17,112 nt of DNA, taken from positions 1 through 17,112 of the forward strand of contig JBEKGO010000041.1 in the NCBI GenBank assembly GCA_050012755.1, read 5' to 3'. Below the pieces are notes generated by a model. That model was not told where the DNA came from. It ran no database searches and saw nothing but the letters and a program-made list of their open reading frames with translations. Positions 3-11,495 of the stretch are shown piece after piece. Every line of letters starts with the position of its first letter. Within the stretch, counting starts at the first letter, position 1. The translations under genes and the position numbers were made by a program. Source of the stretch: Candidatus Bathyarchaeia archaeon (GTDB lineage: Archaea; Thermoproteota; Bathyarchaeia; Bathyarchaeales; Bathycorpusculaceae).

Positions 3-2567
3 CAAAACAGAAGCAGAACCCGTAATCGACGCAGTCACCGTATCCGTCGCAGTCAAAGTCTGAGAACCCGCAGTCTTCAACGTAACACTGAAAGAACCCA
101 CACCATTCGTGAGACCAGCGTTAGCAGGCAAAACCGCCTGAACATCCGAAGAAGAAAAGTGAACCATACCCGCGTAACCCGTAACCACGTTACCATACAG
201 ATCCTCCGCCGTCACCAAAACAGTGACAGAACTACCAGCAGTAACAGTTGTCGGAGAAGCAAGAACGCTAAAATGAGTAACGCTACTAGAACTTATCGTA
301 ACCGTAGTAGTCGCAGAGGTCACACCAGCAGAAGATGCAGTCAAAGTCGGAGAGCCCGCAACCGTGTCACTATAGTAGAAACTCGCAGTGCTTGATCCAC
401 ATGCGATAGATACAGACGTAATCTGGTTACTACCAGCGGAATCACTGAAGAACTTGCCGCCAGCAGAAGTAGAAGACAAACTCACAGTAGCACCGGAAGT
501 AACAGGGTTACCGTATTGATCTTGCAGCTGAACAGTAATTACGTTGGAAACTTGACCTGCATACAAAGATTGACCCGCACCATCGGTAAAAACCAACTTA
601 TAGGCCGTGGCAGAATTCACAAGGACAGTAGCATAACCCGTTATCGAAGACGTCATAGTATCAGTAGCAGTAATAACCCGATAACCATCAGTCTCTAGCG
701 TAACACTGAAAGAACCCACGCCATTGGTCAAACCAGAATCAGCAGGCAATATAGCTTGAGCATCACATGAAGTAAAATGAACCGTACCAGCATAATTTGT
801 GACTGTATTCCCATATTGATCCTTGGCTGTTACCGTAATACTGAATGCTTTACCCGCAATCGCGGAATCTGGAGCAGCAACAACAAAATAAGTGGCACCG
901 GCGGCATTAACTTGGATTCCAACCTGAGAGCCACTAACCGAACCACTCGTTGCAGAGATTGATTGGGTGCCTGAAGTTTTCAAAGTAACACTGAAAGATC
1001 CAACACCATTTGTTAGAGAGCCAGGTGGAGGTAACGTTGCTGCCAAATCGCTTGAAGTAATTGTCACTGTACCTGAGAACGCAGTGGCCACGTTGCCATA
1101 TTGGTCTTTAGCTGTCACTGTTACCGAATGAGCTGCACCTGCAATAGTAGGACTCGGAAACCCAGAAACCACAAAACTCGTAGCACTTGCGGCATTTACC
1201 GTTAAGCTGGCTGATGCAGATGTATAGCCAGTGGCAGATGCAACTAATGAAAAAAGCCCAGCGGCAGTACTCTTGAAATAGAAACTTGAAGTGCTGCTTG
1301 AACCAGAACTTATCGTTCGTTGATTATTCGAAATTAGAGTTGTGCCGCCTGAATTTGAATACCATACGCCGCTGGGAGACAAAGTAACCGTAACGCCTCC
1401 ACTTCGGGCATTCACAGGATTACCATATTGATCTTGCAACTGAACGGTAATTCCTCCGGAAGTAACACCAGCAGTTAAAGAAGAAGGCACACCTACAAAT
1501 GCCAACTTGGCAGCTCCAGCCGCATTCACTGTAATTCCAGACTGAGAGCCAGTGATAGTTGACGTCACGGTGTCAGTAGCAGTAATTGACTGAGACCCAA
1601 CAGTTTCCAAAGTAACACTGAAACTCTTGGAGCCAGCATCACCAGAAACAAAGGTGTAATCAACAGGCAGAACAGCCTGACTATCACTTGAAGTAAAGTG
1701 AACCGTACCAATGTAACCTGTGGCGACATTGCCATTTGCATCTTTAGCTGTCACCGTTACAGAATGAGCTGCACCAGCAATAGTAGGACTCGGAAACCCA
1801 GAAACTACAAAATTCACAGCAGGAGCCAGATTAACAGTTAATGATACTGTTGAACTCGTTGATCCTGAATAGTGACAATCTCCGCTGTAAACAGCTTGGA
1901 ATTTGTAAACTCCGACATTTGATAACGTGTAGGATTTGGAGGTAGCAGAACCTGAGGACAAAGTTCGTGTATCAAAAGTATTCCAGGTGCTTGAACCAGG
2001 AATTTCAACTTGGAACTGTACACTTCCAGTTGCCTCTGATGGAGAAATCGTTGCTGTAGCTGTTAAGGAAGCTCCTGCAATTTGAGGGCTAGTTTTAGAC
2101 AGAGTTAAACTTGTCATTGAACTTATAACGCAGTTTGCTGAGTCTACGGCGTCTGAAGAACCGTCTGATCCTGGAGGTTGAGAGTGGTAAAGTCTCACTG
2201 TTATAGAATAGGTTCCTGGCTGAGCGTAGGTGTGTGAATTAGATGTCCAAGTTCCTGAGAAATCATTGTCATCTTGAGTAAAGTGGACCGTTGAGGTCAC
2301 ATCTTTTGTTCCATCGCCCCAAACAACTTCAACTTGATATTGAGAAAGTTGTCCTTCGAAATTTTGACCGCTTGCGGAACCTGTTAAGGTAATGGGATTA
2401 AAGAAGGGTCCATTCCAGGGTGATAATCCATTTATGGTGGATATTTCAATGTCGTATGATTTGCCACATGCTTTTGCTACTCCGGCAAATCCACCTATGG
2501 CTGAGATGGATGATATTGTTATTAATGTAATTAGAAATAAGACTAATGCCTTATTGACATTTTTCAT
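3..2567 (-). CDS. Large secreted/cell-surface protein, C-terminus beyond the window (>855 aa): signal peptide, PKD-like domain, Ig-like domain, then tandem Ig-like 'D-x-Y-G-N' repeats
   Basis: Manual translation from ATG 2567: MKNVNKALVLFLITLITISSISAIGGFAGVAKA (signal peptide), then VVWGDG...HTYAQPGTYSITV (PKD-like), then YKFQAVYSGD (Ig-like), then repeats such as FVVSGFPSPTIAGAAHSVTVTAKDQYGNV and ITVQLQDQYGNPV. Frame is open to the window edge. AGAAGGAGAAGG SD-like sequence upstream. Absent from the ORF track because there is no stop in the window. Confidence 0.9.
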   Translation of the reverse strand, partial: MKNVNKALVLFLITLITISSISAIGGFAGVAKACGKSYDIEISTINGLSPWNGPFFNPITLTGSASGQNFEGQLSQYQVEVVWGDGTKDVTSTVHFTQDDNDFSGTWTSNSHTYAQPGTYSITVRLYHSQPPGSDGSSDAVDSANCVISSMTSLTLSKTSPQIAGASLTATATISPSEATGSVQFQVEIPGSSTWNTFDTRTLSSGSATSKSYTLSNVGVYKFQAVYSGDCHYSGSTSSTVSLTVNLAPAVNFVVSGFPSPTIAGAAHSVTVTAKDANGNVATGYIGTVHFTSSDSQAVLPVDYTFVSGDAGSKSFSVTLETVGSQSITATDTVTSTITGSQSGITVNAAGAAKLAFVGVPSSLTAGVTSGGITVQLQDQYGNPVNARSGGVTVTLSPSGVWYSNSGGTTLISNNQRTISSGSSSTSSFYFKSTAAGLFSLVASATGYTSASASLTVNAASATSFVVSGFPSPTIAGAAHSVTVTAKDQYGNVATAFSGTVTITSSDLAATLPPPGSLTNGVGSFSVTLKTSGTQSISATSGSVSGSQVGIQVNAAGATYFVVAAPDSAIAGKAFSITVTAKDQYGNTVTNYAGTVHFTSCDAQAILPADSGLTNGVGSFSVTLETDGYRVITATDTMTSSITGYATVLVNSATAYKLVFTDGAGQSLYAGQVSNVITVQLQDQYGNPVTSGATVSLSSTSAGGKFFSDSAGSNQITSVSIACGSSTASFYYSDTVAGSPTLTASSAGVTSATTTVTISSSSVTHFSVLASPTTVTAGSSVTVLVTAEDLYGNVVTGYAGMVHFSSSDVQAVLPANAGLTNGVGSFSVTLKTAGSQTLTATDTVTASITGSASVL
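1105..1812. repeat. Intragenic direct repeat, 72 bp (1105-1176 vs 1741-1812)
   Basis: 68/72 identical by hand alignment; the 4 differences are synonymous and both copies encode FVVSGFPSPTIAGAAHSVTVTAKD. Confidence 0.9.
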
Positions 2568-4093: not shown

Positions 4094-4531
4094 TCAAATC
4101 TGAGAAGACTTTTGGCTTGGATATTCAACGAGACCGTAGTATTTTGTGCCTTCAAGTTTTTTTGCAAGTTTCTCGTCAAGAGTCAGCAGTTGCGTGTTTA
4201 GCTTCTTCGCAAGTGACAAGAAAGCAGCATCGTAGACAGTTATATCAAGTTCCAAAGCAATGGCGATCGCGCCAGCAATGATCTCAGAAAAATCATGAAT
4301 TGCGAAGAGATTCATCAGTTCCATGGCTTGTGTGAAAGCTCTTGCTACATCATTTGCGTCAAACTGGTCAGATTCTTTGCATTTTATTGCATTTGCAACT
4401 TCGTAATAGTTTAAGTCCAGACCATGGATATCATCATACTTTGATAGTTTCTTGGAAGACCAGTCAGAGAACAATTCCGGTGTGACCATGGCAGCAATCA
4501 CAGATGAATCAACGACAACCTCAGTGGGCAT
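4094..4531 (-). CDS. vapC: PIN-domain toxin, VapC family
   Basis: VVDSSVI, YEVANAI, ITVYDAAFLSLA, LLTLDEKL motifs; overlaps upstream antitoxin. Confidence 0.92.
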   Translation of the reverse strand: MPTEVVVDSSVIAAMVTPELFSDWSSKKLSKYDDIHGLDLNYYEVANAIKCKESDQFDANDVARAFTQAMELMNLFAIHDFSEIIAGAIAIALELDITVYDAAFLSLAKKLNTQLLTLDEKLAKKLEGTKYYGLVEYPSQKSSQI

Positions 4532-4754
4532 GATCGCGGCTCTCCCTGATTATGTCTGCTGACGAAACGGTCACTCCAATCTTCTTACTGAGCTCGTTCC
4601 TAAACTTGTCAACCTCTCTCATCGCTTTCTTCATTTTCTTCCTTTTCACCATTTTTTCAAGGCATGTCCGGACTTCATCTGCATAATCTAAGTTTAACTC
4701 TTGAAGTTCTTCTTTGAGCTTCTTTGATACTCTGACCGCAATTACATCGCTCAT
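4521..4754 (-). CDS. vapB: VapB-type antitoxin (ribbon-helix-helix-like)
   Basis: MSDVIAVRVSKKLKEEL N-terminus and SSADIIRESRD C-terminus typical of archaeal VapB; 11-nt overlap with vapC. Confidence 0.88.
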   Translation of the reverse strand: MSDVIAVRVSKKLKEELQELNLDYADEVRTCLEKMVKRKKMKKAMREVDKFRNELSKKIGVTVSSADIIRESRDHAH

Positions 4755-4898: not shown

Positions 4899-5186
4899 AT
4901 GGCTCAGGAACAAATTAAGTATAAGCAGATTTCCGTTAAGCTTGTTGGCAGCAACGTTGTTAATTTCCGATTAGAAGATGGAACTTTATTAAAAATTTTC
5001 GTGGAAGTAACAAGAGCAGGTGTTGCTGTTGATAGAAAAGGTCCTGATGGCATGCCCATATACAACTTAAACATCAATACTAGACCTGAGCTGGAAACCA
5101 AGGACAGGATATACTTTGCTCCTCCACCGCAGGTTCCAACTCAAAGCGCAACCGACAAAAAAGCCGAAAAAGCCTATACAAGTTAA
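4899..5186 (+). CDS. Small hypothetical protein
   Basis: 95 aa, GGTGG SD, beta-rich core FRLEDGTLLKIFVEV...GPDGMPIY; function not recognised. Confidence 0.75.
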   Translation: MAQEQIKYKQISVKLVGSNVVNFRLEDGTLLKIFVEVTRAGVAVDRKGPDGMPIYNLNINTRPELETKDRIYFAPPPQVPTQSATDKKAEKAYTS

Positions 5187-5247
5187 TCGTTGAGTCCCGA
5201 GAAAAAATTGCGGCGCAAGAAAATCTGTTTTTAGAAAAAACCTTCTA

Positions 5248-5658
5248 TTATTTTAGCCAGGTTCTGAAAACTGTTGCTCCGAAGGATATGAAGCCGGTAA
5301 ATAGTAGGGCGAAGGCTAGAACGAGGTTTGTTAATGTGTTTGCCGCCGGATTTTGATTTAAGTATATGGTAACGGCGAAGAACATGTAAAATGAGGTAAA
5401 TATCGTCGCAAGTTGTAGCCAAAAAAGCATTTTTTTTCCCAAGTTACTTTTTGGTTGGAAATTGTATGATTTTTGAATTTGGATAATTTTTATGGCTGTG
5501 AAGATGTTTAGTATCGAAGCTACGATTAGTAACCAAAAGAGATTACCATTGATTAAGTATGGTTCGAAAACTTTCTGATTGCCTGCGTAAATTCCTGCTA
5601 GGAACCCAATTGCGTAAATTATGCATAAAAATGAATTTAAGATTAGTGCTACACTCAA
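5248..5658 (-). CDS. Four-helix membrane protein; possibly the frameshifted C-terminal domain of the upstream TackOD1-like gene
   Basis: Four hydrophobic segments. The only start is TTG 5658 with no clear SD, but the frame is open upstream to 5844, overlapping the end of 5757..6968. Confidence 0.7.
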   Translation of the reverse strand: MSVALILNSFLCIIYAIGFLAGIYAGNQKVFEPYLINGNLFWLLIVASILNIFTAIKIIQIQKSYNFQPKSNLGKKMLFWLQLATIFTSFYMFFAVTIYLNQNPAANTLTNLVLAFALLFTGFISFGATVFRTWLK

Positions 5659-5756
5659 TGGTTTCGTTCCATATGTTTTTAGCGTTTCCCAATCTATGGA
5701 TGGCTTAGTTTCTTTTTTTATTAGGTCATAGATTGGTGAGGGTTTTGATTGGTCTG

Positions 5757-6968
5757 TTAGGTTATGTTCTTTTTTTTTAATCCTCGAAATTTGCCGAAGA
5801 AGGATGTATTTTCTTGTTTGTTTTCCGGTTGTTGATTTTCGGATTCATTGATTGTTTTTTGGTTTATTTGGTTTATTCTATTTTCAATTTCTTTTTTGAT
5901 TTTGTCTATTGCTTCTGCTTGTTCGGTTGATCCTTCAATTAGTAGGATGTTGTTGCCTTCGGCTATTTTCTTTGCTGTATCACTTAGTCCTGGTATTGCG
6001 ACGAATATGGGGATGTCAACTTTTACTTCTGATATTTTGTAAAGGTACAGTATTAGGGGGGATGATTGAACTTCGGATTCGCTTACTGCATGATCTAGCG
6101 CTATAACGATTTCTTGTCCGTTGACTTGTTTTTTTGCAATAAGACTAAAGTGATGTTGCATTTTGCTCTTTTGCCCAATAGTCAATCCAGGCATCTCTAT
6201 GTCAAAGCCTAGCTCAGCTACAAGTGTTCGGATGTCTTCTAGACTTGCGACGTTTTGCCTTATTTCCTTCTTTTTTGTCAAGTTTAATGAGAATTTGGGT
6301 ATTTCTGTTACTTTCGCGTCTTTTATTGCGAAGCTTTTGTTGCAGTTGCGGCAGACTAGGTCAAATTCTGGATTTTCAAATTTCTCACCGCATTCCTGGC
6401 ATATGTACCAACGCCCCATGTTTCTATATTGACCTTCGAGAAGGGGTTCTCCGCATTTTGGACAACGATTATTTATGTATTTGTCTTTTTGATCGATATA
6501 TCCGCATGGAATATGTTCGGTTAAGCTTGTTTTTTCAACGTTGTGGCTTTTGCATTTGGGACATCGATTATGCAGTGTTAAAACTGTTGACTGACAATTT
6601 GGGCACGATGAAATTGAATCAAAAAAGTTTTTTTGCAAAATATTTAGTTGCGCAAGATTTTCTAAAAGATCTCTCGGTATTGTTTCTGCTTCGTTTTTAC
6701 TTGAAAGCCTGTTGGTTATTTGGTAAACATATCCTGAATTTGGAGCGTAGATGGGGACTATTTCTTCTTTATCTCCATCTTGGAGTAGTTTCCGTAGGAG
6801 GTCGCGTGCCTTGGGTTCGATATATGCCTCTCGTCTTTGCAGATCCATTTTGTCTTCCATATCCAAAGCTTTGATTGTATCTTTGTTTTTGTCTGAAGTG
6901 GTGTTTTCTTTTGGCTGCCGCTCAACCGTTCTTTTCGGATCATTTTTTTCTTCTTGATTTCTCTTCAT
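5757..6968 (-). CDS. TackOD1-like multi-zinc-ribbon protein with C-terminal degenerate restriction-endonuclease-like domain
   Basis: IVPIYAPNSGYVY then LENLAQLNILQK and six metal-ligand pairs (CPNC, CPKC, HIPC, CPKC, CQEC, CRNC); later GQKSKMQHHFSLIAKK resembles the G-x-SG-x-x-H-x-FD motif of archaeal Mrr-like domains. Confidence 0.8.
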   Translation of the reverse strand: MKRNQEEKNDPKRTVERQPKENTTSDKNKDTIKALDMEDKMDLQRREAYIEPKARDLLRKLLQDGDKEEIVPIYAPNSGYVYQITNRLSSKNEAETIPRDLLENLAQLNILQKNFFDSISSCPNCQSTVLTLHNRCPKCKSHNVEKTSLTEHIPCGYIDQKDKYINNRCPKCGEPLLEGQYRNMGRWYICQECGEKFENPEFDLVCRNCNKSFAIKDAKVTEIPKFSLNLTKKKEIRQNVASLEDIRTLVAELGFDIEMPGLTIGQKSKMQHHFSLIAKKQVNGQEIVIALDHAVSESEVQSSPLILYLYKISEVKVDIPIFVAIPGLSDTAKKIAEGNNILLIEGSTEQAEAIDKIKKEIENRINQINQKTINESENQQPENKQENTSFFGKFRGLKKKNIT

Positions 6969-7025
6969 GATCTGGCGACTTCCTTCTCTCGGATAGGTTT
7001 CTCATTTATATTTATATTGTTTTGT

Positions 7026-7850
7026 TTAATGTAGAAACAGATAGAATGCTATTCCTGAAGTAATGGCTAAAATAGCTACGTGTTTTAGTCCGTCAGTAAA
7101 TGAATCTTCATTGATTTTTCCTGCGATTAAACCGCCGAAGACTGCTTCTAATAAAGAGGCGTGTAGAAATAATCGTCTTGATGCTGCCTGTGTTATTATT
7201 GGTTTAATAAATGATGTAGTTGTTCCTGTGTGGCTTAGGGGAGCGAACATCATGTTTGATATTATTATGACTATGAATAAGAACATGAATACTGAGAAGT
7301 AGAATATTAGAACGTAGGGTTGTGTTTGTTGTCTTCTTTTTTGAGTCCAAGAGTTGACGCTTTCTAGGTATTTTGCGGTGGAGTCAAAGATGTCTGATAG
7401 GTCTCCTCCGTGTTTTCCGGCTTCATTTATCAGGATAGTTGCTTTTTTGATTAACGGTATGTCCACTCTGTCACTTAGTTCCATTAGGGCTGCATCGAAG
7501 TTCATGCCCCAGCTCATGTGTGCTACTAGTAGTTTTAGTTCATGTGTTAGTGGGCCATATTGTCGGTTGGATGCGTGCTCTAGAGCTACTTGTAGAGGGA
7601 TTCCTGTTCTTGAGGCGGTAGCTAAGTCTCTTAGAAAGTCGGGGGTTGCTTTTTCAATTTTGGCTTTCCATCTATTGTGTATCATGCTTGCGATGCTGGG
7701 AGGAATCACACCTATTGCTAGAGCTATCACCATCATATAGTCTAATGTTGGGGATGTTATGTAGAAAAATAGCGTCGGAACGAAGAAGATTATTGCTGCT
7801 ACTACAGAAATGTATGTTATTCTTTTTATTGTTTTTTTGGTTAGTATCAT
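7026..7850 (-). CDS. Type IV pilus/T2SS F-family membrane platform protein (TadC-like)
   Basis: IEKATPDFLRDLATASRTGIPLQVALE, MSWGMNFDAAL, GKHGGDLSDIF, GLIAGKI; multiple TM helices. Confidence 0.93.
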   Translation of the reverse strand: MILTKKTIKRITYISVVAAIIFFVPTLFFYITSPTLDYMMVIALAIGVIPPSIASMIHNRWKAKIEKATPDFLRDLATASRTGIPLQVALEHASNRQYGPLTHELKLLVAHMSWGMNFDAALMELSDRVDIPLIKKATILINEAGKHGGDLSDIFDSTAKYLESVNSWTQKRRQQTQPYVLIFYFSVFMFLFIVIIISNMMFAPLSHTGTTTSFIKPIITQAASRRLFLHASLLEAVFGGLIAGKINEDSFTDGLKHVAILAITSGIAFYLFLH

Positions 7851-7857
7851 TTAGCTC

Positions 7858-8739
7858 TCACTTTTCGAAAGTTGACATTATAACCATCATTATTGCGCCC
7901 ATTATTGGGATTCCAAGGTAAGTCAATAGGTAAAGTATCAGTGACATGCTTATGCCACCTACGTTGCCGCTGCCTATCATGCCTAATGTAACAAAAAGAA
8001 CGATGAAAAGTAATGGGGCTGCGACTAACATCATGATGTAGATTTCTGCCATCGCTGATAGTGATTCAAGCATCATGTCAAGTTTGCCCATTCGGTCTTT
8101 GGTTACTGTTTCAGTTGTGATTTTTAGATATTCTGTTGGGTTTCCTCCTGTTCTGACTGTTGCTACGTAGCCTTGTAGAATTTCGCTGAGTTGATCATTG
8201 GGTGTCAGCTTGGCGTTGTCAACGATTGAAGTCATGAGGTCATTGCCAAAGACTTCTATGTCTCTTATGATGTTGCTAAATTCCATACGCACTTCTTTGA
8301 GAGTATCAATTTTGGCCATTGACTCGAAAATGAGACTGGGAGGAACATTTGAACTTGAAAGAAGAGTAAGAAAGTTGGTTATGTAAGGCAAGTTTTTGTT
8401 TATGGGTCCGTTTCTGTTGCTTGCTTTCATGCCTGGATAAATGTACATTACTAAAAATGTCACCATTGCTGCTGATACTGCAATAACTAAAGTAAATGCG
8501 AAGTTCATTGTTGACAGGATTGGAACACGAGTTAAGAGTGGCAAGAGGATAAACGATAGGGGGATTGCTGCCGCAAAAACAATTATTGAGATTAACACCA
8601 TAAAGGCGATGTAGGCTTTGAATGCTATCAGTACCCCGCCTTTTTTGAGTTGAATATGGATCTCTTGAAACTGGGGGTATACCTTCTCTAATTTCTTGTT
8701 AAGCAGATTGTATGCTGTTGTCCAGGGTTCAAATTTCAT
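7858..8739 (-). CDS. Type IV pilus/T2SS F-family membrane platform protein (TadC/FlaJ-like)
   Basis: INKNLPYITNFLTLLSSSNVPP, IIRDIEVFGND, VRTGGNPTEYL, LSAMAEIY; ATG overlaps the ATPase stop (TAATG). Confidence 0.93.
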   Translation of the reverse strand: MKFEPWTTAYNLLNKKLEKVYPQFQEIHIQLKKGGVLIAFKAYIAFMVLISIIVFAAAIPLSFILLPLLTRVPILSTMNFAFTLVIAVSAAMVTFLVMYIYPGMKASNRNGPINKNLPYITNFLTLLSSSNVPPSLIFESMAKIDTLKEVRMEFSNIIRDIEVFGNDLMTSIVDNAKLTPNDQLSEILQGYVATVRTGGNPTEYLKITTETVTKDRMGKLDMMLESLSAMAEIYIMMLVAAPLLFIVLFVTLGMIGSGNVGGISMSLILYLLTYLGIPIMGAIMMVIMSTFEK

Positions 8740-10406
8740 TAGGAGCTCACTTTTGCTTTACGGTATATCAGTTGTGGGTCTGAGAAGTAGTCTAACACCA
8801 TTTTGGAAACGTCTTCGTAGGAGCGTATGTGTTTCTTGACCATGTACTCAAGGATTGTTTGTCTCATTTGGAGCTCTTGATCTATTTCTTCTGGAGAGTA
8901 TCCCCATTGTGTTGCGATTCTATCTAATAATGGGCTTCTTCCTACCCTAACGTAGATGTCTTTTTCGACGTCCCATTTGAATATGTCTTGGATTTTGAAG
9001 TCGTTTTTTTCTCTATCCCAACCGACCATTTCTGATACGCTTATGGTTCTTCTTAAGGAGACGTTGTTAACGACTAGTCTTCGTACGATTGAGATGGCGT
9101 TTAGGTTTTCTACTTGCGTAGGTGGAATGTTCATAGGTTTTGTTGTTAGTCTGTGAAGTACACCCTGTACATGTTCTGCGTGTATGGTTGTTAAGCCTAA
9201 GTGTCCGGTTGCCATAGCTTGGAATAGGGCGTAGGCTTCTTCGCCTCTGATTTCGCCTACGATGATGAAGTCGGGTCTTTGTCTTAGGGCAGCTCGGAGT
9301 AAGTCGAACATGCTGATGCTGCCAATTCCGGATTCGCCCACTGCACCTGCACCTGTACCTAAGCCTTGCCTTGTGACCATCATTTCCCAGTTTTGATGGG
9401 GTAAACGGATTTCTTGTGTGTCTTCTATGCTCACTATTTTTAGGGTTGGTCTAATGAATAGGCTGATGGCGTTGAGCATAGAGGTTTTTCCTCCGCCGAT
9501 GTCGCCGCCGATCATGACTGAGTGTCTGTTTTCTATTAAGAACCAGTAATACGCAGCGATTTCGGGTGACAGAGCCTTATACACTATTAAATCAGTGATG
9601 GTGAGAGGAGTTTTTTTGAATTTTCTAATGGTGAAGGTGCTGCCTTTAGGTGTTACCTCTGTTCCATAGGTTACTTGGGCTCGACTTCCATCAGATAATG
9701 TTCCGTCAAGGATTGGTTGCGCGATGGAGATGTGCCTGCCGCAGAGGTAGGCAAGTTTGAACACAAAGCTTTCTAGTTCCTGGTGAGTGTTGAATACTAC
9801 GTTTGAGGGTATTGATTCATATTTTCGGTGCCAAACAAACACTGGCGAGTTAATGCCATCACAAGAGACATCTTCAATATTTTCGTCTCTCATTATACCA
9901 TCTATTTTTCCAAAACCCAAGAAATCTCGAGTAATATAGTACTGATACTTACCGAGTGTGTTGGCATCCATATTTATGCGATATTTTATTGCTGTTTCCA
10001 AAATTTTGTATTTTAAGAAGTCTTCTGCTTCCGATTCATTTTTGAAACTTTTTGTGTTAATTGAAAGTTCATCCCAGAGAATACTTTTTAGCTCAGTTAA
10101 CAGTTGCCCATCCAATTCTGTTATCGTTGGCTCTAGAAGCGAATATTTTACCTCGTTTTTTTCGTCTTCAACAATTGCCGCATATGAAAAGGGAAGCAAA
10201 AGAGGATAATGCTCTTTGAAAGTTTCTGGAACCACAGATCCTCCCGCAGCATCTGTGTGATTTTCCACCGCAGGACCAGGTGTATTTTCATTTATAACTG
10301 AGGCATTTTCTGCTGGTGACTGTGATTGCTTGGATTTTTTTTCGCGTTTCCATATCTTCAATCTAGCTACCACATCATTAATTTCATAAGAGTCAATATA
10401 AACCAT
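8739..10406 (-). CDS. Type II/IV secretion system ATPase (FlaI/TadA/VirB11 family); true start may be GTG 10373
   Basis: Walker A GDIGGGKTS, SIEDTQEI Asp box, LRQRPDFIIVGEIRGEEA Walker B, MATGH...TTIHA His box. TTTATA at 10397-10402 lies 24 nt upstream of GTG 10373, which fits a leaderless start. Confidence 0.96.
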   Translation of the reverse strand: MVYIDSYEINDVVARLKIWKREKKSKQSQSPAENASVINENTPGPAVENHTDAAGGSVVPETFKEHYPLLLPFSYAAIVEDEKNEVKYSLLEPTITELDGQLLTELKSILWDELSINTKSFKNESEAEDFLKYKILETAIKYRINMDANTLGKYQYYITRDFLGFGKIDGIMRDENIEDVSCDGINSPVFVWHRKYESIPSNVVFNTHQELESFVFKLAYLCGRHISIAQPILDGTLSDGSRAQVTYGTEVTPKGSTFTIRKFKKTPLTITDLIVYKALSPEIAAYYWFLIENRHSVMIGGDIGGGKTSMLNAISLFIRPTLKIVSIEDTQEIRLPHQNWEMMVTRQGLGTGAGAVGESGIGSISMFDLLRAALRQRPDFIIVGEIRGEEAYALFQAMATGHLGLTTIHAEHVQGVLHRLTTKPMNIPPTQVENLNAISIVRRLVVNNVSLRRTISVSEMVGWDREKNDFKIQDIFKWDVEKDIYVRVGRSPLLDRIATQWGYSPEEIDQELQMRQTILEYMVKKHIRSYEDVSKMVLDYFSDPQLIYRKAKVSS

Positions 10407-10667: not shown

Positions 10668-11078
10668 TCACTCAATTGGGATTCGCTTTATTTCTTTGAT
10701 TTGGTCGAAGTCTTCGTCGTCGCTGATGACTGATTTTGATCTCTTCTCAAGGGCAGAAGCCAAATGAATTGAGTCACGTGGATCCAATTTGTATTTGTCC
10801 ATTAATCTTTGCGCGTTGGCTATGACGTTTTCGTCTACTGGTACAAACTGCAAGTTTGGGAACCCTAGTAGTTTTCGGCCTTGACTTATTCCTTCATTTC
10901 TGCCCATTGTTCTGTTGACGACCCACACGACTTCATCCCAAGTTAACGTTGAAGTATAGGCTGATAGTTTTCCGTTCTCTACGCTAAGCAGAATCTCTTT
11001 GGCTTTTTTGGCCTTAGGTTGAGCCTCTACTGAATAAATTACGGGGTAGATAAAAACGTTTGAGTCAAGGTAGGGCAT
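10668..11078 (-). CDS. vapC: PIN-domain toxin, VapC family
   Basis: YLDSNVFIY, TWDEVVW, PRDSIHLASAL, ISDDEDFD. Confidence 0.93.
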   Translation of the reverse strand: MPYLDSNVFIYPVIYSVEAQPKAKKAKEILLSVENGKLSAYTSTLTWDEVVWVVNRTMGRNEGISQGRKLLGFPNLQFVPVDENVIANAQRLMDKYKLDPRDSIHLASALEKRSKSVISDDEDFDQIKEIKRIPIE

Positions 11079-11316
11079 GTCTTTGACCGACCTCTGCGGT
11101 TATGATTTTTTTTGTGTTTATGGGTTTTTTCAGTTTTGGAGCACTAGTAGAGCTGTAATATTCAGTGTAGTTACCTTCGATTTTGGGTTTGCTTATCACT
11201 ATTTCATTCTCGCGTACTTCAAGAGTCACATCGACACCCGGTTTTATTCCAATGGAGTCACGCATCCGCTTAGGAATTACAACTTGCCCTTTTGGCCCAA
11301 CGCTTTTTGTAGGCAT
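11065..11316 (-). CDS. AbrB/MazE/SpoVT-family antitoxin
   Basis: VGPKGQVVIPKRMRDSIGIKPGVDV signature; ATG 11316 preferred over TTG 11328; overlaps vapC. Confidence 0.92.
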   Translation of the reverse strand: MPTKSVGPKGQVVIPKRMRDSIGIKPGVDVTLEVRENEIVISKPKIEGNYTEYYSSTSAPKLKKPINTKKIITAEVGQRHALP

Positions 11317-11495
11317 AACTAACACCAATCAGCATAATTATCCAACCTACATTTATATTTTCTTACTATATGGTTATACATTTCAAGCAATATTGTCTCC
11401 GTACTAAGACATAAAAACAAGAAGTCATCTCTCACGATCCACCACTTAGCTTGACTATTATTGTCGGGGCCTAAAACTGTTAAAAAGTGAACGAA

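Follow-up and report, generated by a model that had tools for sequence, protein, structure and literature searches.

In Escherichia coli, dnaX yields tau and gamma at the heptamer A_AAA_AAG, aided by an upstream Shine-Dalgarno-like element and a hairpin 3' of the site, and frameshifting gives the shorter of the two products; dnaX of Thermus thermophilus uses slippage on a run of nine adenines (A9), and in RNA polymerase slippage bases can be gained or lost. For Archaea, a 2021 review gives the alpha-L-fucosidase gene fucA1 of Saccharolobus solfataricus as the only reported cellular -1 programmed frameshift (PMC8211752). For bacteria, Baranov et al. (2005) describe nine A's or T's (9A/9T) as the run length from which many genomes show evident selection against slippage, and such runs are also exploited for expression (PMC1088944). 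Here we addressed a locus on a stretch of 17,112 nucleotides (nt), hereafter the window, from a Candidatus Bathyarchaeia archaeon (contig JBEKGO010000041.1), in which the gene of a TackOD1 protein ends at an A9 tract and an open reading frame (ORF) with four transmembrane (TM) segments follows in the -1 frame. We proposed, with even chances of being right, that slippage on A9 makes a soluble and a membrane-anchored form from what was formerly a fusion gene, and that selection maintains it. The junction consists of the following features.

5757..6968, minus strand: TackOD1 protein, 403 amino acids (aa), the 0-frame product (Pfam TackOD1, PF18551)
5770..5778, minus strand: A9 homopolymer (T9 on the plus strand), the proposed slip site; 0-frame TTA AAA AAA AAG
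5659..5769, minus strand: 37-codon hydrophilic linker, readable in the -1 frame only, free of start codons
5248..5658, minus strand: 4-TM ORF, 136 aa from TTG 5658, stop at 5248-5250, -1 relative to the TackOD1 gene

The anatomy of this junction was established directly. The TackOD1 gene ends GGA TTA AAA AAA AAG AAC ATA ACC TAA, with its stop at 5757-5759; the tract is exactly 9 bases long (5770-5778), the stop lies three codons 3' of it, and both A_AAA_AAG and A_AAA_AAA stand in 0-frame phase within TTA AAA AAA AAG, as the original prediction had described. Its further claim, a -1 frame that stays open across a 37-codon linker and on into a 4-TM ORF, also held: the frame is free of stops from 5844 to 5248 (198 codons stop-to-stop), reads EHNLTDQSKPSPIYDLIKKETKPSIDWETLKTYGTKP past KKK (37 codons, 5659-5769) and continues into a hydrophobic ORF, the TM ORF, with 4 TM segments on a Kyte-Doolittle scan. 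The earliest ATG, GTG or TTG of this frame is the TTG at 5658, in agreement with the earlier view that TTG is the sole start of the 4-TM ORF. A shift by one base is predicted to give a fused product of 400 + 173 = 573 aa, and an A10 transcript is predicted to read ..GLKKKEHNLT.., to be compared with ..GLKKKGDSQT.. in the natural fusion P0131 (below). Peptides of the linker are searchable as EHNLTDQSKPSPIYDLIKK...; with no start codon before the linker, its translation would enter from the TackOD1 frame. The probability that a 37-codon linker is open by chance in this genome alone was about 0.1, as estimated from base composition, which is weak evidence by itself; the weight comes from conservation in other species.

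The length of the tract was supported by sequencing runs from peat and wetland metagenomes that contain the stretch. Logan contigs from four runs were aligned to the window, and A9 was present across 5770-5778 without mismatch or gap in contigs of X1, a possible source sample, and of two runs unconnected with the source sample, X3 and X6; the X4 contig ends at 5761 and is uninformative on A9. Thus, the A10 outcome of an A9-versus-A10 check was absent on contigs, and an A10 read as A9 by assembly error, which the original prediction had kept as an alternative, was ruled out by the agreement of three runs. Since contigs omit rare variants, minor A8 or A10 alleles could escape this comparison. 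In the whole genome (G000; 2.41 Mb, 65 contigs, 41.6% GC), A/T runs of length 6, 7, 8, 9, 10 and 11 numbered 4190, 1417, 239, 33, 1 and 1, respectively. An ORF-context scan of the 35 runs of at least 9 placed 10 beside or inside a long open frame on one strand (1 inside, 4 near the 3' end, 3 near the 5' end and 2 at a two-frame junction). The second A9 junction, at C19:5232-5240, was rejected as a slip site because it is intergenic and the next gene has its own ATG; it separates a thermosome-like gene, which ends ..GGMGGGMGE*, from an rpoK-like gene. The T9 at C45:8392-8400 is the only A/T run of at least 9 well inside a long open frame in G000.

Conservation of the layout in other species was established next to this. 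A TackOD1 orthologue was detected in 31 of 120 genus genomes (E <= 1e-60). The 3' ends were inspected in 27 genomes and in the metagenome lineage MG65 (L065), giving 28 rows; this set omits G002, G069, G086 and G094, whose matches are fragmentary or broken, and the second copies of G103, G117 and G125, and its G115 row is a broken gene with no true tail. The run length at the 3' end was A9 in 3 rows, A8 in 5, A7 in 6, A6 in 11 and A4 or shorter in 3. The A9 rows (G000, G075 and G022) coincided exactly with the rows in which an intact TM ORF follows in -1, and A9 occurred in none of the 25 others. In G075, the junction is GTA AAA AAA AAG AAC CTA ACC TAA, and in G022 it is TCT AAA AAA AAA GAA CCA ACC TAA; in both, the stop comes three codons past A9 and the TM ORF lies in -1. 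These results indicated that no one-off deletion lies behind the arrangement, and the recent 1-nt deletion that the original prediction had also allowed for was thereby set aside. The A9 begins at codon position 3 in G000 and G075 and at position 1 in G022, with compensating indels on both sides; thus, run length (A9), not codon phase, is constant across species, on a basis of three species only. The -1 frame is closed by TAA directly 5' of the run in G022 and five codons 5' of it in G075.

The start of the TM ORF was not conserved with the layout. The TTG Leu codon of the window is CTG in G075 and CTA in G022, which shows that there is no conserved TM ORF start, and the G075 TM ORF has no ATG, GTG or TTG before about residue 121, within TM3. 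As a consequence, gene callers cut it to 121 aa (P0028), the sole version of it in protein databases; the window ORF is called at 136 aa (P0003), and elsewhere the ORF is missed. Because gene callers shorten or miss the TM ORF in this way, the membrane-anchored architecture, if made, would be invisible in current databases. The comparison of orthologues that the original prediction had called for therefore gave a conserved overlap and A9 in G075 and G022, an ORF free of starts before TM3 in G075 and, as described below, an in-frame fusion. The linker motif NLT.QS ... (I/L)(D/N)W(E/Q).LKT is common to relatives. Beyond the inspected rows, KKKN[TVIL]T* tails were present in 5 further 90%-identity clusters (P0030, P0031, P0033, P0034 and P0035), and KKRT* (A8-type) tails in at least 10. 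P0038 (A8-type tail) and P0024 (intact 208-aa TM ORF) both list a 4078-base contig, so that an intact TM ORF probably also occurs with an A8 genotype. Two other proteins are further variants of the same junction: P0043 (431 aa) carries the amphipathic tail motif twice (..FFGRFKGPKK...LFGKFGQVKKKNIIAHNN), and P0047 continues beyond the usual stop (..KKKNITQRNNQNHP).

Selection on the TM ORF was evident from substitution patterns. Among the four genomes with the TM ORF, the ratio of nonsynonymous to synonymous substitution rates (dN/dS, Nei-Gojobori) was 0.11-0.28 at dS 0.5-1.6, and 0.16-0.28 for the window versus its relatives; thus, the TM ORF is under purifying selection. In particular, the TackOD1 tree pairs G000 with G075 as sisters (support 99/95), both have A9 in the same phase, and their TM ORFs show an excess of synonymous changes (p = 7e-7). 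Since the sister pair shares both the A9 phase and purifying selection, we concluded that the TM ORF was kept while out of frame. The linker gave dN/dS of 0.18-0.37 among G075, G022 and G002 (Fisher p 0.0026, 0.00035 and 0.043).

An in-frame fusion of the two parts was established in P0131, a metagenomic protein of 629 aa and the only such fusion among the best 120 of 384 matches to the TackOD1 protein. Its N-terminal 400 residues are 62% identical to the window TackOD1 protein, its residues 402-629 are 55% identical to the G075 -1 ORF (E = 2e-82), and its junction reads ..FLGLKKKGDSQTSQPPNWQP... Because P0131 matches both halves, at least one relative has the fused architecture as an ordinary gene. 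A fused product of the window locus is biologically credible. Two other searches with the TM part, one of representatives (20 matches, all <=243 aa) and one by words for longer proteins, gave no fusion, and both are false negatives that missed P0131. A fused-length open frame (about 630 aa) was seen at none of 21 matches to P0131 (E <= 1e-150) in 19 of 332 family genomes; the G127 row of this search lists an unexplained 568 aa, and the G127 gene ends at TGA after 403 aa. The metagenome scan used alignment A2, whose two patterns cannot match P0026 or P0131. P0026 (255 aa) begins VGSKKKERLLTLQD..., where the TM frame passes the Lys stretch in the frame of a G022-like TackOD1 tail; it may represent another in-frame fusion, truncated at a contig end, or else a gene that starts at GTG.

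On this basis, the proposed history and mechanism are as follows. The ancestor would have been a single gene, in which a pilus-associated TackOD1 protein was fused to a 6-TM membrane domain and the two halves were joined through a Lys-Lys-Lys stretch encoded by the poly-A tract. With A9, standard decoding would stop three codons on and give a 403-aa soluble form with a basic amphipathic tail, leaving the membrane domain in the -1 frame. Slippage on A9 would restore the frame in a fraction of molecules and give a 573-aa membrane-anchored isoform; the likeliest step would be the addition of one A by RNA polymerase (A10 mRNA), and unstimulated -1 slippage of tRNA-Lys on A_AAA_AAA/G may contribute. 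Because the slip site lies directly after the tail, the longer product would trade reversible contact with the membrane for permanent multi-pass anchoring next to the pilus platform. We infer from these comparisons the occurrence of slippage, its level, the proportion of molecules affected and its upkeep by selection.

A number of observations weigh against selection-maintained slippage. In MG65 (L065 and L066, two contigs), the junction GGA AAA AAA AGA ACA TAA has A8, so that the TM ORF falls in +1, and this ORF is decayed by an in-frame stop and at least three frameshifts; G047 and G103, both A8, retain TM ORF remnants only. The intact TM ORF of G002 has a GTG six codons before TM1, and the TackOD1 part there is a pseudogene. 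P0023, the closest TM relative of the window (80% identical), starts at an ATG of its own, four codons ahead of TM1, and the TM proteins P0005 and P0006 likewise start at their own ATG. A8-type and A9-type tails interleave among close relatives on a FastTree tree, and the tract is evolutionarily unstable. In pairs that include this genome, linker dN/dS was 0.52-0.72 (p 0.15-0.3), with no significant constraint. P0131 is one protein on one 4390-base contig, known at the protein level only, and that archaeal RNA polymerase slips on A9 is an assumption carried over from bacteria. Finally, the window TM ORF is a shortened member of a 6-TM family that has lost about 67 aa (TM3-TM4) in frame. The deletion site lies at about 5457 (minus strand), between TM2 and TM3; G075, G022 and G002 have the missing residues, and P0023 carries the same deletion. 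P0004 differs in its internal deletion of that region, which argues that the loss probably happened independently.

Gene fission is the strongest rival: a tract-length mutation would have split the fusion, the TM ORF would now be an independent 136-aa protein from TTG 5658, and the A9 and open linker would be relics. The own start codons just before TM1 in P0023, P0005 and P0006, the GTG of G002 beside its dead TackOD1 part, the different tract lengths of close relatives and the linker of this genome, with no significant constraint, all fit such a split, as does a widespread stand-alone paralogue family of 225-245 aa that starts about 10 aa before TM1 (17 of 332 family genomes, E <= 1e-15, query P0004). 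It sits poorly, however, with the conservation of the G075 TM ORF despite its lack of starts before TM3, with CTG and CTA in place of the TTG Leu codon, with a linker that is constrained among G075, G022 and G002, and with a pure A9 that is kept wherever both ORFs are intact (three species) and is seen in none of the 25 other rows. We regard fission as unlikely. The paired 403-aa soluble and roughly 573-aa membrane forms of the original prediction are accordingly supported in part, by the layout kept in G075 and G022 and by the P0131 fusion, and the TTG-started 136-aa protein stays a serious rival to them. The TM domain and its paralogues gave no Pfam family above the cut-off, and ESM Atlas matches of the TM domain were solely Bathyarchaeota hypothetical-protein clusters; the family is restricted to Bathyarchaeia.

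To return to slippage, RNA polymerase is the most likely route as judged from the site itself. In the 70 nt 3' of the run, which are A/C-rich in all three species, no stimulatory structure was found: the minimum free energies were 0, -0.3 and -3.3 kcal/mol, with z of 0.57, 0.69 and -0.63 versus shuffles, and an alignment fold of the region 3' of the run predicted 0 pairs. The genome encodes both tRNA-Lys(UUU) and tRNA-Lys(CUU), so AAG is no 'hungry' codon; E. coli has no tRNA-Lys(CUU). Taken together, the lack of structure, the presence of tRNA-Lys(CUU), a constant run length with varying phase, and A8 relatives that need the opposite shift favour homopolymer slippage over a stimulated -1 frameshift. 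The same protein would result from unstimulated -1 slippage of tRNA-Lys on A_AAA_AAA, and sequence alone cannot separate the two.

A classical programmed -1 ribosomal frameshift at A_AAA_AAG, dnaX-like and the main route to the fused protein, is improbable on the same evidence. The heptamer is in phase in G000 and G075, and A_AAA_AAA is in phase in G022; a 2016 review notes that a conserved A_AAA_AAR is predicted in archaeal Mg-chelatase genes (PMC5009743), and A_AAA_AAT is the fucA1 shift site of S. solfataricus (PMC8211752). Against these precedents, the region folds no better than shuffles and gives 0 alignment pairs, tRNA-Lys(CUU) provides AAG with a cognate reader, A8 relatives would need +1 rather than -1, and run length is constant across species where phase is not. 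Thus, the phase of the heptamer in the original prediction stood, and the ribosomal shift that it had proposed there became the weaker option.

DNA-level phase variation, with the membrane anchor turned on or off as the tract changes between A9, A10 and A8 inside a population, has only a slight chance of being correct. Close lineages do differ in the tract, and all three frames are represented (in-frame P0131, -1 A9 types and +1 A8 types); yet A9 was found with no listed indel in contigs of three runs, a weak point since contigs omit rare variants, one in-frame relative was found among the best 120 of 384 TackOD1 relatives, and no fused-length frame was found over P0131 matches in 332 family genomes, bar the unexplained 568 aa of G127. 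Equally slight is the chance that the TM ORF is a recently disabled pseudogene remnant or that A9 stands for A10 through assembly error: decayed copies in 3 lineages (MG65, G047 and G103), the missing TM3-TM4 and a rough three-taxon dN/dS of about 0.4 on the G000 branch versus about 0.2 on the G075 branch point that way, but purifying selection has acted on G000 and G075 since an A9 ancestor common to both (p = 7e-7), the deletion inside the ORF kept the frame and removed an even number of helices, and A9 recurs in X3 and X6, two runs unconnected with the source sample.

The 0-frame product is itself a recognizable family member. TackOD1 proteins were described as arCOG06883 from thaumarchaeal pilus loci, with no assigned function, and have 11 conserved Cys in five CXXC motifs and one HXXC motif (PMC5847659). 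The window protein scored 100.1 bits against a Pfam cut-off of 32 (residues 54-228), and 11 Cys and H152 were invariant in 26 sequences of alignment A4 (C122/C125, C136/C139, H152/C155, C169/C172, C190/C193 and C206/C209); it thus matches the family on hidden Markov model score, on Cys pattern and on its position in a pilus locus, where T2SSE and two T2SSF genes immediately precede it on its own strand. The protein comprises a disordered N-terminus, the Zn-ribbon-rich TackOD1 domain (about 54-228), an alpha/beta domain (about 255-350), a long helix and the tail SFFGKFRGLKKKNIT. The tail motif SFFxKLxGxKK(K/R) is conserved among orthologues and looks like a basic amphipathic membrane-binding tail; it may resemble the MinD-type tail. 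An AlphaFold model (predicted local distance difference test, pLDDT, 75.9) places the alpha/beta domain at about 255-350, and Foldseek with this domain (window 5907-6206) gave PD-(D/E)xK nucleases as best matches, namely AF1548 at 1.9e-5, followed by Cdn1, EndoMS, MspJI and Can2, with low template-modelling scores (0.17-0.45). The domain carries a D292...E309-V-K311 pattern, of which alignment A4 shows K311 as invariant and D292 as nearly so; E309 is part of the consensus SEVKVD yet falls outside the columns listed as >=90% conserved. A PD-(D/E)xK nuclease-like fold is accordingly a lead only, and if it holds, its presence at a pilus locus might hint at DNA handling. A PDB profile search with alignment A4 gave weak Zn-ribbon matches only (best E = 0.006). 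G117 and G125 each have two full-length TackOD1 orthologues, 60-70% identical to the query and on separate contigs.

The pilus-type genes and the TackOD1 gene form one minus-strand cluster; the remaining features of the locus are the following.

8739..10406, minus strand: T2SSE/PilB-like type IV pilus-type ATPase, 555 aa, first gene of the cluster (Pfam T2SSE, 2.2e-31)
7858..8739, minus strand: T2SSF-family membrane platform protein, 293 aa (Pfam T2SSF, 6.2e-12)
7026..7850, minus strand: second T2SSF-family platform protein, 274 aa (Pfam T2SSF, 2.5e-19)
5202..5240, minus strand: two T6 runs just past the TM ORF stop, a possible archaeal oligo-T terminator

The second T2SSF gene (7026..7850) keeps its synteny in G022, G075 and others, and homologous ORFs lie upstream in L003-L006 and L062/L064. 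Sequence inspection gave no T run between the TackOD1 stop and the TM ORF. A promoter and terminator scan of 5100-7100 gave nothing exceeding shuffles, with bacterial-type models that are ill-suited to archaea, and there were 0 Rfam matches within the window. On both sides of the cluster are PIN-domain ORFs (4094-4531 and 10668-11078, both minus; Pfam 7.4e-11 and 4.3e-21), each preceded by a small overlapping ORF (4521-4754 and 11065-11328, both minus), pairs that look like VapBC-type toxin-antitoxin modules. A partial 855-aa ORF leaving the window (3-2567, minus) has bacterial Ig-like matches (Big_1 in six stretches, Big_3_5 and Invasin_D3) and is probably a surface or adhesin-like protein.

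A broader proposal may be put forward tentatively, and we hold it to be possible rather than probable: a recoding switch kept by selection in Bathyarchaeia, in which RNA polymerase or the ribosome, at a poly-A domain junction, splits a pilus-associated, nuclease-like Zn-ribbon protein into peripheral and integral-membrane forms, and evolutionary A8, A9 and in-frame changes would retune their ratio. The locus in any case offers stages in the life of a fusion gene: the halves joined in frame, the halves out of frame with a slippery tract between them, a separate gene with a new start, and decay. Very few archaeal recoding events are known, and a site conserved in several uncultured species of Bathyarchaeia would give a second, comparative handle on them. 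If the proposal is true, this would be a conserved cellular archaeal recoding site outside Sulfolobales and methanogens, and possibly the first functional transcriptional slippage by archaeal RNA polymerase; the site would also raise the question of whether gene expression uses such slippage. In the literature on TackOD1 and on Bathyarchaeota frameshifting, we found no description of this locus.

Compared with known systems, the locus would represent recoding at a poly-A tract, a known type, but in a gene family and an archaeal class that are both new for it. E. coli dnaX has the same heptamer and, as would be the case here, two products that differ at the C-terminus; the window site differs in being free of a hairpin, in the presence of tRNA-Lys(CUU) and in a shifted product that would be longer. 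With bacterial 9A/9T transcriptional slippage (Baranov et al. 2005, PMC1088944), the locus shares nine A's inside coding sequence, no need of RNA structure and, as proposed here, an alternative C-terminus in a shifted frame; those cases are bacterial and mostly insertion sequence (IS) transposases, whereas the window site is archaeal, and no such slippage by an archaeal RNA polymerase turned up in the literature consulted. The Mg-chelatase genes of Methanocaldococcus and Methanococcus (PMC5009743) likewise have a conserved A_AAA_AAR in an ORF overlap of an archaeal cellular gene, predicted by comparative genomics; they belong to another gene family and phylum, and the window tract varies by lineage and its downstream part also occurs as a stand-alone protein. 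For fucA1 (PMC8211752), we found the likeness of an archaeal cellular gene with two overlapping ORFs and an A-rich heptamer (A_AAA_AAT), with full-length relatives that differ by one A in the tract, the same relation as between the window locus and P0131. The fucA1 site, unlike that of the window, has a putative stem-loop and rare codons, and its frameshift was demonstrated in vitro and in vivo, whereas that of the window is predicted from sequence. Moreover, the shift in fucA1 restores one enzyme; at the window locus, the 0-frame product is complete and conserved, and slippage would add a membrane anchor to it.

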